NCBI GenBank assembly: GCA_019058245.1
Contig: JAHPZJ010000028.1
Span: forward strand, 32,001 to 96,000
Reading direction: 5' to 3'
From: Promethearchaeota archaeon
GTDB taxonomy: Archaea; Asgardarchaeota; Lokiarchaeia; Sigyniarchaeales; SOKP01
Length of the DNA stretch: 64,000 nucleotides
The translations under genes were made by a program, and so were the position numbers. Below, piece after piece: positions 1,292 through 60,550 of the stretch. Under the pieces are notes generated by a model. The model did not search any database. It saw nothing but the letters and a program-made list of their open reading frames with translations, and was not told the DNA's origin. Positions within the stretch are counted from its first letter, which is position 1. Every line of letters starts with the position of its first letter.

Positions 1292-1590
1292 TAATCTAAG
1301 TTCTTTAATCCATATCTGTTTATACTAAGTATTTTCTTAAATTAAATTATAGAATGTATATGATAAATCAATTTCAGTTTATTTTATTTTTCCTAAATTA
1401 ATTCATTGCCTATATACATAAGAAAGTTATAACATAATCAATATGAGAATGTGATTTAATATAGAATATAATTAAGTTAATAAGCTCGGAATAAAACAAA
1501 TTAGAAATATTTATATATAAATCAATCAATAGTTAACAAAAATTATTTAATTCAATAAATTTACTAAACATTGAGGAGACGAATTAAAAA

Positions 1591-1677
1591 ATGGCAAAGA
1601 AGAAAGCTCCTGCTAAAAAAAAAGCTCCAGCTAAAAAGAAAGCCCCTGCTAAAAAGAAGGCACCTGCTAAAAAATAA
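1591..1677 (+). CDS. 28-aa Lys/Ala/Pro repeat microprotein MAKKKAPAKKKAPAKKKAPAKKKAPAKK (histone H1 tail-like)
   Basis: Below the ORF-track cutoff; GAGGAG SD at 1573-1578; repeat units differ only at synonymous third positions; TTTATATA box near 1510; T-tracts downstream. Confidence 0.85.
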   Translation: MAKKKAPAKKKAPAKKKAPAKKKAPAKK

Positions 1678-1769
1678 AGTTAAAAAGCTATATTTCAATT
1701 TTTTTCTAATTTTTGTTTTTTTTAATTTGATAAAACAGTTATAATAATTCAATTTTTTAATTATTTTTA

Positions 1770-58682: not shown

Positions 58683-60550
58683 TGCAGAGACGTCCCCAAA
58701 GAGGCCCAATGGGTGGAGGCCCAATGGGTAGAGGCCCAATGGGTAGAGGGGCATTCCCCATGATGGGAGGTAAAGCAAAAGACTTTAAAGGTACTATTCG
58801 AAAATTATTTGCTTATATGGGTAAGTACAAAAAGGTAGTAATAATTGCAATCATTTTTGCGATAGCTTCTACAACCGCCGTCATTTTTGGTCCGAAGATT
58901 TTAGGGATGGCAACTACAAAATTATTTGAAGGTTTAATTGACCAAATAAGAGGTACAGGTTCAATTGATTTTGAATATATTGGATTTATAATTCTTTTAA
59001 CAATTGGGTTGTATGTACTTTCTGCAATATTTAGATTTGTACAAGGTTGGATAATGGCCAAAGTTTCCACAGATACATCTTATCGCCTAAGGCAAGATAT
59101 CTCCAAAAAGATTAACAAATTACCTCTCAAATATTTCGATAAAAAAACACATGGTCAAGTACTGGCACATGTAACTAATGATGTGGATGTAATTAATCAG
59201 ACTTTAAGTCAAACACTTACCCAGATAATTACTTCAATTGTTACTATAGTTGGTGTTCTCATAATGATGTTATCTATCAGTTGGTTTCTAACTCTAATTG
59301 CGTTGCTTATAATCCCAATTTCACTAATTTTAATGCGAACGATTATGAAGAGGTCTATAAAGTACTTTATAAAACAACAGCAATACTTAGGTCATGTAAA
59401 TGGTCATGTTGAAGAGATGTTTAGTGGTCATGTTGTAATGAAAGCTTTTAATGGGGAGGAAAAAAGTATTAAGAAATTTTCTGAATATAATAATATACTT
59501 TATAAATCTGCATGGAAAGCGAGTTTTTTTTCTGGTTTATTGATGCCACTAATGTTTTTTATAGGAAATATAGGTTATGTTGGAATTGCCATATTAGGTA
59601 GTTGGCTCGTTATAATTAATTCTATATCTATTGGTGATATTCAAGCATTTATCCAATATATCCGTACTTTTACACAACCCCTAACTCAAATTGCAAATAT
59701 CTCTAACACAATTCAACAAACTATAGCAGCAGCAGAAAGAGTCTTTAAATTCCTTGAGGAAGAAGAAGAAATTGAAGAGACGATGAATCCTATTAAAATT
59801 GAAGATAAAAATACCTACCAGGTTGAATTTAAAAATGTTCAATTTGGATATAATCCAAATAAAATTGTAATCCATAATTTTTCAGCCTTAGCAGAATCTG
59901 GTAAAAAAATAGCTATCGTTGGTCCAACAGGGGCAGGAAAGACCACAATTGTCAAACTTCTAATGCGTTTTTATGATATACTTGATGGTAGTATTTTAGT
60001 AGATGGAAAAGAAATTAGAAATTTCACTCGAAAAGATCTACGTACTTTATATGCTATGGTTCTGCAAGATACATGGCTTTTTAATGGGACTATAATGGAA
60101 AATATACGGTATGGAAATAGCGACGCGAGTGACAAAGAAGTTATTGAAGCTGCTAAAGCTGCACATGTAGATGATTTTGTCCATTCATTACCGAATAGCT
60201 ATAATATGATTATTAATGAACAAATTACTAATATATCTCAAGGTCAAATGCAACTTATAACCATTGCTCGAGCTGTTTTAGCGGATCCTAAAATACTTAT
60301 TCTTGATGAGGCTACCAGTTCTGTAGATACCCGAACTGAGATACTAATACAAAAAGCTATGGATAAATTAATGGTAAACCGTACAAGTTTTATTATAGCT
60401 CATAGATTATCAACAATCCACAATGCAGACCTTATTCTCGTAATGAATGGGGGAAATATAGTTGAACAAGGAACTCATGATGAATTAATGGCAAAGAATG
60501 GATTTTATGCCGACGTCTATAATAGTCAATTTGTAAGTATAAAAAGATAA
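58682..60550 (+). CDS. Heterodimeric ABC exporter, subunit with consensus Walker B/H-switch
   Basis: TMD; GPTGAGKT, ISQGQ, ILDEA, IAHR; TAATG coupling. Confidence 0.93.
   Translation: MQRRPQRGPMGGGPMGRGPMGRGAFPMMGGKAKDFKGTIRKLFAYMGKYKKVVIIAIIFAIASTTAVIFGPKILGMATTKLFEGLIDQIRGTGSIDFEYIGFIILLTIGLYVLSAIFRFVQGWIMAKVSTDTSYRLRQDISKKINKLPLKYFDKKTHGQVLAHVTNDVDVINQTLSQTLTQIITSIVTIVGVLIMMLSISWFLTLIALLIIPISLILMRTIMKRSIKYFIKQQQYLGHVNGHVEEMFSGHVVMKAFNGEEKSIKKFSEYNNILYKSAWKASFFSGLLMPLMFFIGNIGYVGIAILGSWLVIINSISIGDIQAFIQYIRTFTQPLTQIANISNTIQQTIAAAERVFKFLEEEEEIEETMNPIKIEDKNTYQVEFKNVQFGYNPNKIVIHNFSALAESGKKIAIVGPTGAGKTTIVKLLMRFYDILDGSILVDGKEIRNFTRKDLRTLYAMVLQDTWLFNGTIMENIRYGNSDASDKEVIEAAKAAHVDDFVHSLPNSYNMIINEQITNISQGQMQLITIARAVLADPKILILDEATSSVDTRTEILIQKAMDKLMVNRTSFIIAHRLSTIHNADLILVMNGGNIVEQGTHDELMAKNGFYADVYNSQFVSIKR
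58701..58749 (+). repeat. 15-bp coding tandem repeat (x3.3) encoding GPMG[GR]
   Basis: GAGGCCCAATGGGT[G/A] x3 plus GAGG. Confidence 0.9.

Follow-up and report, generated by a model that had tools for sequence, protein, structure and literature searches.

Does a repeat coding for lysine, alanine and proline in the genome of a Promethearchaeota archaeon constitute a gene and, if so, what might its product do? The repeat lies in the window, the term used here for the whole 64,000-nucleotide stretch of contig JAHPZJ010000028.1 that was analysed; the host genome (3.09 Mb, 29% GC, 76% complete) contains five histone-fold (PF00808) genes. A preliminary description had proposed a plus-strand microprotein of 28 residues, half of them lysine and none acidic, and the ORF matches it: the translation reads Met-Ala-(KKKAPA)x4-KK, with 14 lysines and no Asp or Glu. 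Minus the initiator Met, the computed product has 27 residues, a mass of ~2.84 kDa and a charge of ~+14. Among the 22,569 ATG ORFs of ≥15 aa in the genome, this one tops K/A/P richness (0.96; runner-up 0.56). Assembly error at 1591-1677 was rejected: a contig from run X6, of the same study as a possible source run, is identical over 1316-2000, and run X9, from another study, holds a variant of the gene in one piece. None of the sequencing runs listed as containing the locus was of RNA, a result that weighs neither for nor against expression.

Table 1. Elements of the micro-gene (window coordinates) and acidic micro-genes of the host (contig and locus coordinates).
Feature	Position	Strand	Remarks
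BRE-like purine run and TATA box (AGAAATA TTTATATA)	1503..1517	+	TTTA and the A 3 bases before it invariant in 45/45 aligned upstream regions
Shine-Dalgarno-like element GAGGAGACG	1573..1581	+	GGAG 1575-1578 at -16; AGGAGACG/AGGAGAGG conserved across the genus
K/A/P microprotein ORF, 28 aa	1591..1677	+	ATG 1591, TAA 1675-1677; orthologues in 45 genomes, pN/pS 0.084
Four 18-nt units, each KKKAPA	1597..1668	+	six deviations from consensus, all synonymous
T-tract, candidate archaeal-type intrinsic terminator	1699..1723	+	faces convergent gene ending at 1770
Acidic Trp-repeat micro-gene, 37 aa	C24:14876-14989 (L260:2577-2690)	+	SD, TATA, T tract
Acidic Trp-repeat micro-gene, 31 aa	C13:382214-382309 (L261:2515-2610)	+	SD, TATA, T tract

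Variation within and between species bears on whether the peptide is under selection. Differences among the four units fall exclusively at synonymous third positions (6/6), as had been noted at the outset, an outcome with a probability of ~1e-4 to 5e-4 under random change. Among 13 species whose orthologue has the 37-aa form without gaps, pS was 0.52 and pN 0.044 (pN/pS 0.084), the ratio was lower in the sense frame than in every other frame, and 29/36 third positions were variable, compared with 4/36 first and 8/36 second positions. Other frames are also open across the repeat, which was not counted as evidence in either direction because K/A/P codons seldom create stops in other frames. On the opposite strand, a 62-aa TTG frame (1564-1752) was unconserved among 46 orthologous loci, just 16 of which held any start-bearing antisense frame, inconsistent in frame and length; the antisense ORF had rightly been regarded as spurious.

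The 46 orthologous ORFs encode 27-38 aa with 14-19 lysines, and no Asp or Glu, aromatic or large aliphatic residue. Their composition is K 50%, A 28%, P 17% and G 3% (98% together), with 1.3% Ser plus Thr; prolines are mostly spaced by 5 or 6 residues, lysines occur in runs of 2-3, and unit order varies freely, with charge held at 14-19. Unit number differs in frame between relatives (the run X9 relative, for example, carries an in-frame 18-nt insertion behind 1644), so slippage is active as well. The initial claim of selection as opposed to slippage is therefore right as to selection and wrong in its exclusion of slippage; the two jointly shape the repeat. Five orthologues have premature stops with an in-frame remnant behind, and since all five stops come after codon 27, they suggest a floor of ~14 charges, with no particular C-terminus needed. 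Pyrrolysine or other read-through at these internal stops was ruled out (4/5 are TAA, and their positions differ). Judged on these comparisons, the locus is a real monocistronic gene under purifying selection, and what selection preserves is the charge, spacing and minimum length of the product.

The TATA box predicted upstream was confirmed (Table 1) and lies ~82-86 nt before the ATG in most orthologues; transcription would start at ~1540, giving a leader of ~50 nt. A ‘strong’ Shine-Dalgarno element had also been predicted: the element is conserved, and GGAG at -16/-15 is the modal position for long ORFs of this genome, but its 5-nt AGGAG core makes it adequate rather than exceptional. A run of ≥5 T follows 8-62 nt past the stop in 45/46 orthologous loci. 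A sigma-70 promoter scan gave chance-level results, that model being unsuited to archaea.

Pattern searches with locus extraction recovered stand-alone orthologues in 45/135 genomes of the host's Lokiarchaeia family (own genus 29/54, second genus 15/42, third genus 1/10), and metagenomes add 13 contigs with the micro-gene. Absence from related genomes, which the preliminary description had named as grounds for refutation, is thus not what was found, and conservation within the Promethearchaeota/Lokiarchaeia lineage agrees with the original attribution of the gene to an Asgard archaeon. One genome of another genus (G052) was left out: its micro-gene and upstream flank are identical to those of G097 at every base (L158 / L198), and the copy is probably a binning error. 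A wider range, suggested by matches titled Thor-, Odin- and Hermodarchaeota, was rejected, as their coordinates coincide with genomes placed in the same genus or family. One locus (L101, G093) has a tandem pair of micro-genes, each with its own TATA box, the upstream copy being divergent.

Absence was tested by DNA profile in seven genomes, scoring the best 150 candidates per genome: no copy was found in five near-complete genomes of the own genus or in two complete sister-family chromosomes (6,035,313 and 4,361,485 bp). In genomes without the micro-gene the best profile matches were mostly histone genes, which share with it a common layout of TATA box, long AT leader, SD and MAKK. In G003 (97% complete) the syntenic region is intact and N-free, and the micro-gene is missing; since a one-gene tree places this genome beside carriers with moderate support (91/94), loss is likely. 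Its absence from an intact syntenic locus indicates that the micro-gene is dispensable and accessory.

The micro-gene lies in a 480-nt gap bounded by the ends of a same-strand 105-aa gene at 1291 and of a convergent gene at 1770. Across the own genus the region is loosely conserved and heavily shuffled, with adjoining genes differing in identity and direction, and no histone, other chromatin, ribosomal or translation-operon gene adjoined any micro-gene examined. The 105-aa ORF (974-1291, +) has no Pfam match and groups only partly with nitroreductase-like neighbours of ~246 aa; a chimeric form of it in L006 is consistent with gene-end shuffling in the region. Elsewhere in the window, an ABC-transporter-like gene has an N-terminal (RGPMG)n segment encoded by a 15-nt repeat (58700-58749, +).

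The micro-gene is apparently undescribed. None of ten exact microprotein sequences was found in a collection of 15 billion proteins, in which the histone was found; trypsin would, by computation, leave fragments of ≤4 residues; such micro-genes therefore escape surveys. The ESM Atlas contains a 37-aa orthologue, labelled hypothetical and surrounded by unnamed clusters of 30-38 aa; the closest named cluster there is PF07382 HC2 (17% of members, score 0.92). The microprotein matched nothing in Pfam, NCBIfam, PDB or Rfam, and the micro-gene nothing among viral contigs, while a phmmer search of representatives among 1.84 billion proteins gave a single weak match to this low-complexity query. No description of such a microprotein was found in the literature, and a text search of an Asgard chromatin proteome survey showed no mention of such a peptide (bioRxiv 10.64898/2026.07.02.735847).

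What does the peptide resemble? In six-frame translation, KKKAPA occurs at two sites only in the genome: the microprotein and the start of a tailed histone (C28:252652, 81 aa), whose first nine residues are the same as those of the microprotein. Within the host family, 51 of the 68 HLoB-type tails contain the motif KKAPAKK, as do 34 of the 46 microproteins. Because KKKAPA is found besides only in the histone and KKAPAKK is common to both sets, the closest likeness of the microprotein is the N-tail of the cell's own histone, and not H1 specifically. The preliminary description had overlooked this likeness, as it had the acidic micro-genes found with such peptides in other Asgard classes (see below). 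The tailed histones of the host family fit the HLoB class, with tails mostly of 12-14 aa in the genomes examined; two tailed histone genes, in L024 (G060) and L042 (G080), leave frame early through a frameshift or insertion, either as assembly errors or as pseudogenes. Tailed histones of Loki are abundant and associate with DNA; their tail lysines are methylated, and acetylation and deacetylation of the tails have been demonstrated in vitro (bioRxiv 10.64898/2026.07.02.735847).

Descent of the microprotein from a histone tail is plausible, though unproven because the motif arises convergently. Tail length showed no compensation between carriers and non-carriers in the own genus, g1 (14.1 versus 14.4 aa, p 0.38), tails in genus g22 were longer, not shorter, with the micro-gene, and microprotein and tail sequences showed no co-variation within genomes. 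On the two sister-family chromosomes the histone is present as two or three paralogues with longer tails, and the free peptide was not found there.

The repeat pattern also gave 58 matches among 185,579 species genomes. The carriers include a bacterial HU with its first 23 residues in common with the microprotein, as well as bacterial DksA/TraR, PPDK and a tailed histone-like protein, and between bacteria and the microprotein the motif is convergent. Two stand-alone bacterial ORFs, of 28 aa in Dormiibacterota (L209:1593-1679, -) and 49 aa in Ignavibacteria (L196:3844-3993, -), are nearly the same as the microprotein, and Sedimentisphaerales MAGs (L172, L189) encode a 94-aa protein, histone-like by eye and Pfam-negative, with an N-terminal (KKAAPA)n tail. 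Lokiarchaeia RNA polymerase subunits and a tRNA synthetase (ProRS) also bear K/A/P tails or repeats; given its presence on these proteins and on bacterial PPDK, the motif cannot be read as a sign of DNA binding only. In the polymerase, the end of A' has a variable Lys-rich linker, often K/A/P, followed by a conserved GKNAIWRGK module (L073, L075, L077, L079, L081, L082, L089, L099, L296; own copy C30:19160-22081, -), and an RpoE'-like subunit (L070) likewise has a basic tail.

As to function, the reading favoured here, at a probability of about one half, is that the microprotein, a disordered polycation, associates with nucleic acid and compacts it, the target probably being DNA or chromatin. 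A separately transcribed, stand-alone gene would yield an intrinsically disordered polycation of 27 residues, in which clusters of 2-3 lysines, alanine spacers and a proline every 4-6 residues would display ~14-19 evenly spaced charges; the recurrence of proline at that interval should prevent any fold or helix. The peptide would contact phosphate backbones without sequence preference, then neutralise and bridge them, and in the role of a ‘free histone tail’ it would aid compaction of DNA or histone-coated DNA, as trypanosome H1 and chlamydial Hc2 do. Two weaker suggestions are that methylation or acetylation of its tail-like lysines, as on the histone, might inactivate it, and that acidic microproteins could strip it off nucleic acid. 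The roles proposed here and below are not mutually exclusive.

A specific and tentative proposal, rather unlikely as it stands, is that the microprotein is a released, repeated histone tail that works in trans, serving histone-coated DNA as a minimal counterpart of a linker histone, governed by the lysine marks of HLoB tails and removed by D/E/W microproteins that act in the manner of prothymosin-alpha. An RNA- or ribosome-coating peptide (an RNA chaperone, hibernation or condensate factor) working by the same charge mechanism is likewise possible, if improbable. The sequence of a polycation cannot discriminate DNA from RNA, Hc2 prefers RNA and represses translation (PMC2848022), ribosomal proteins are among the associates of a Toxoplasma H1-like protein (PMC9769792), and the K/A/P tails of RNA polymerase subunits and ProRS would suit such a role. 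Set against this, the micro-gene was never in or beside a ribosomal or translation operon, its units vary in order and its product in length, whereas ribosomal proteins have fixed contacts, its distribution is patchy, and the exact motif match is to a histone tail.

That the main partner is protein, with nucleic acid secondary, is quite unlikely: the microprotein would here be the basic half of a split module and pair or form a coacervate with a D/E/W microprotein, as prothymosin does with H1. In four other Asgard families a Lys-rich ORF of 17-32 aa stands 43-111 nt behind a D/E/W micro-ORF and is followed by a T tract (L128, L134, L226, L229), and the microprotein may represent the basic component of this wider Asgard acidic/basic module, detached from its partner, although homology of the basic peptides between Asgard classes is not demonstrable, the sequence being so simple. 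The host has two unlinked acidic Trp micro-genes of the same promoter layout (Table 1), with relatives in at least 41 host-family genomes. In g1, 15/17 genomes with the acidic pattern also carry the basic gene (Fisher p 0.0009, a value inflated by kinship and assembly quality), but in g22 the co-occurrence is not significant (p 0.16), and some genera that lack the basic gene have acidic micro-genes. Nor are the two adjacent in the host family: no acidic micro-ORF lay within ~1.5 kb of any basic micro-gene, and no convincing basic ORF was seen beside the acidic micro-genes. A third D/E-rich ORF of 67 aa (C13:448527-448730, -) lies upstream of a small-heat-shock-like gene.

The identity of the first nine residues with those of the HLoB histone would also suit a role as decoy or buffer substrate: the microprotein, in effect a string of tail motifs, would soak up the enzymes that write or erase tail marks, or the proteins that bind tails. 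The host genome has four SIR2 genes, and LoHAT2 and LoSIR2b act broadly on tail peptides (bioRxiv 10.64898/2026.07.02.735847). This reading is nevertheless very unlikely, given the lack of co-variation with tails, the presence in many orthologues of PKKKAP or AGP units that are absent from tails, and the report that no reader domains were found (bioRxiv 10.64898/2026.07.02.735847). Highly improbable, too, is a role in defence as a cationic peptide or in binding some other polyanion, such as polyphosphate granules or membranes: the KPAA tail of AlgP does organise polyphosphate granules (PMC9239181), but the microprotein has no signal peptide and no hydrophobic face (GRAVY -1.66), and no transporter, protease or ppk gene was linked to it in the neighbourhoods of orthologues. 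A DNA repeat, small RNA or regulatory leader peptide, with which the missing exact database entries and stop-free other frames would agree, is scarcely credible in view of the codon-position and sense-frame bias, the conserved start, SD, TATA and stop, the negative Rfam result, the terminator downstream with a next gene that varies in identity and direction, and the orthologue in the ESM Atlas.

If it binds chromatin, the microprotein would be a missing component of the Asgard nucleoid and among the smallest of H1-like proteins; if the in-trans tail reading is true, it would be part of an archaeal H1-plus-chaperone system that evolved independently of eukaryotic H1. Such claims are bounded by the patchy distribution of the micro-gene, the restriction of this form to one family and its convergence with bacterial peptides, and the micro-gene tells nothing about the ancestry of eukaryotic H1.

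Among known systems, the HLoB histone shares with the microprotein its start, the KKAPAKK motif, a monocistronic layout and the host genomes. In contrast to it, the microprotein has no histone fold, all orthologues stop after 27-38 codons and run into a T tract, the motif is repeated 4-6 times, the locus is separate (the five PF00808 genes of the host lie elsewhere), the SD context differs (AGGAGACG in the micro-gene, GTGGAGGAAT in the histone gene), and distribution is patchy rather than widespread. With the C-terminal domain of eukaryotic H1 it has in common K, A and P composition, disorder and high charge, and to this extent the original comparison with an H1 tail was apt; the label ‘linker histone’ does not carry over to a peptide of 27-38 aa with no globular domain and a convergent motif. 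Canonical H1 is far longer and has a winged-helix globular domain and the S/TPKK motifs that are essentially absent here. Lacking the winged helix, the microprotein is not a member of H1, no homologue of which had been reported from archaea (PMC6136690).

Closer in architecture are kinetoplastid H1 and the Toxoplasma TgH1-like protein, each a single disordered K/A/P domain without a winged helix (PMC3486875, PMC9769792); that of T. brucei compacts chromatin (PMC3486875). They have ≥73 and 91 aa, whereas the microprotein has 27-38 aa and is archaeal, and common descent is not demonstrable because of low complexity and the convergent motif. Chlamydial Hc2/HctB and Bordetella BpH1 resemble it in Lys-rich pentamer or hexamer repeats with even charge spacing (PMC2848022), in varying in length by repeat number and, for BpH1, in being dispensable; Hc2 condenses DNA, has a higher affinity for RNA and acts as a translational repressor (PMC2848022). 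At 165-237 aa they are five to eight times longer than the microprotein, which has no PF07382 match and no non-repeat domain. The KPAA tails of Pseudomonas AlgP and PhaF consist of K/A/P repeats with affinity for DNA and polyanions, and in vitro binding to DNA has been shown for KPAA peptides (PMC9239181); these tails are attached to a folded domain, whereas the microprotein is free-standing and twice as Lys-dense. Placed by its sequence in this company, the micro-gene is a minimal variant among K/A/P polycations, with a specific tie to the histone tails of Asgard archaea.
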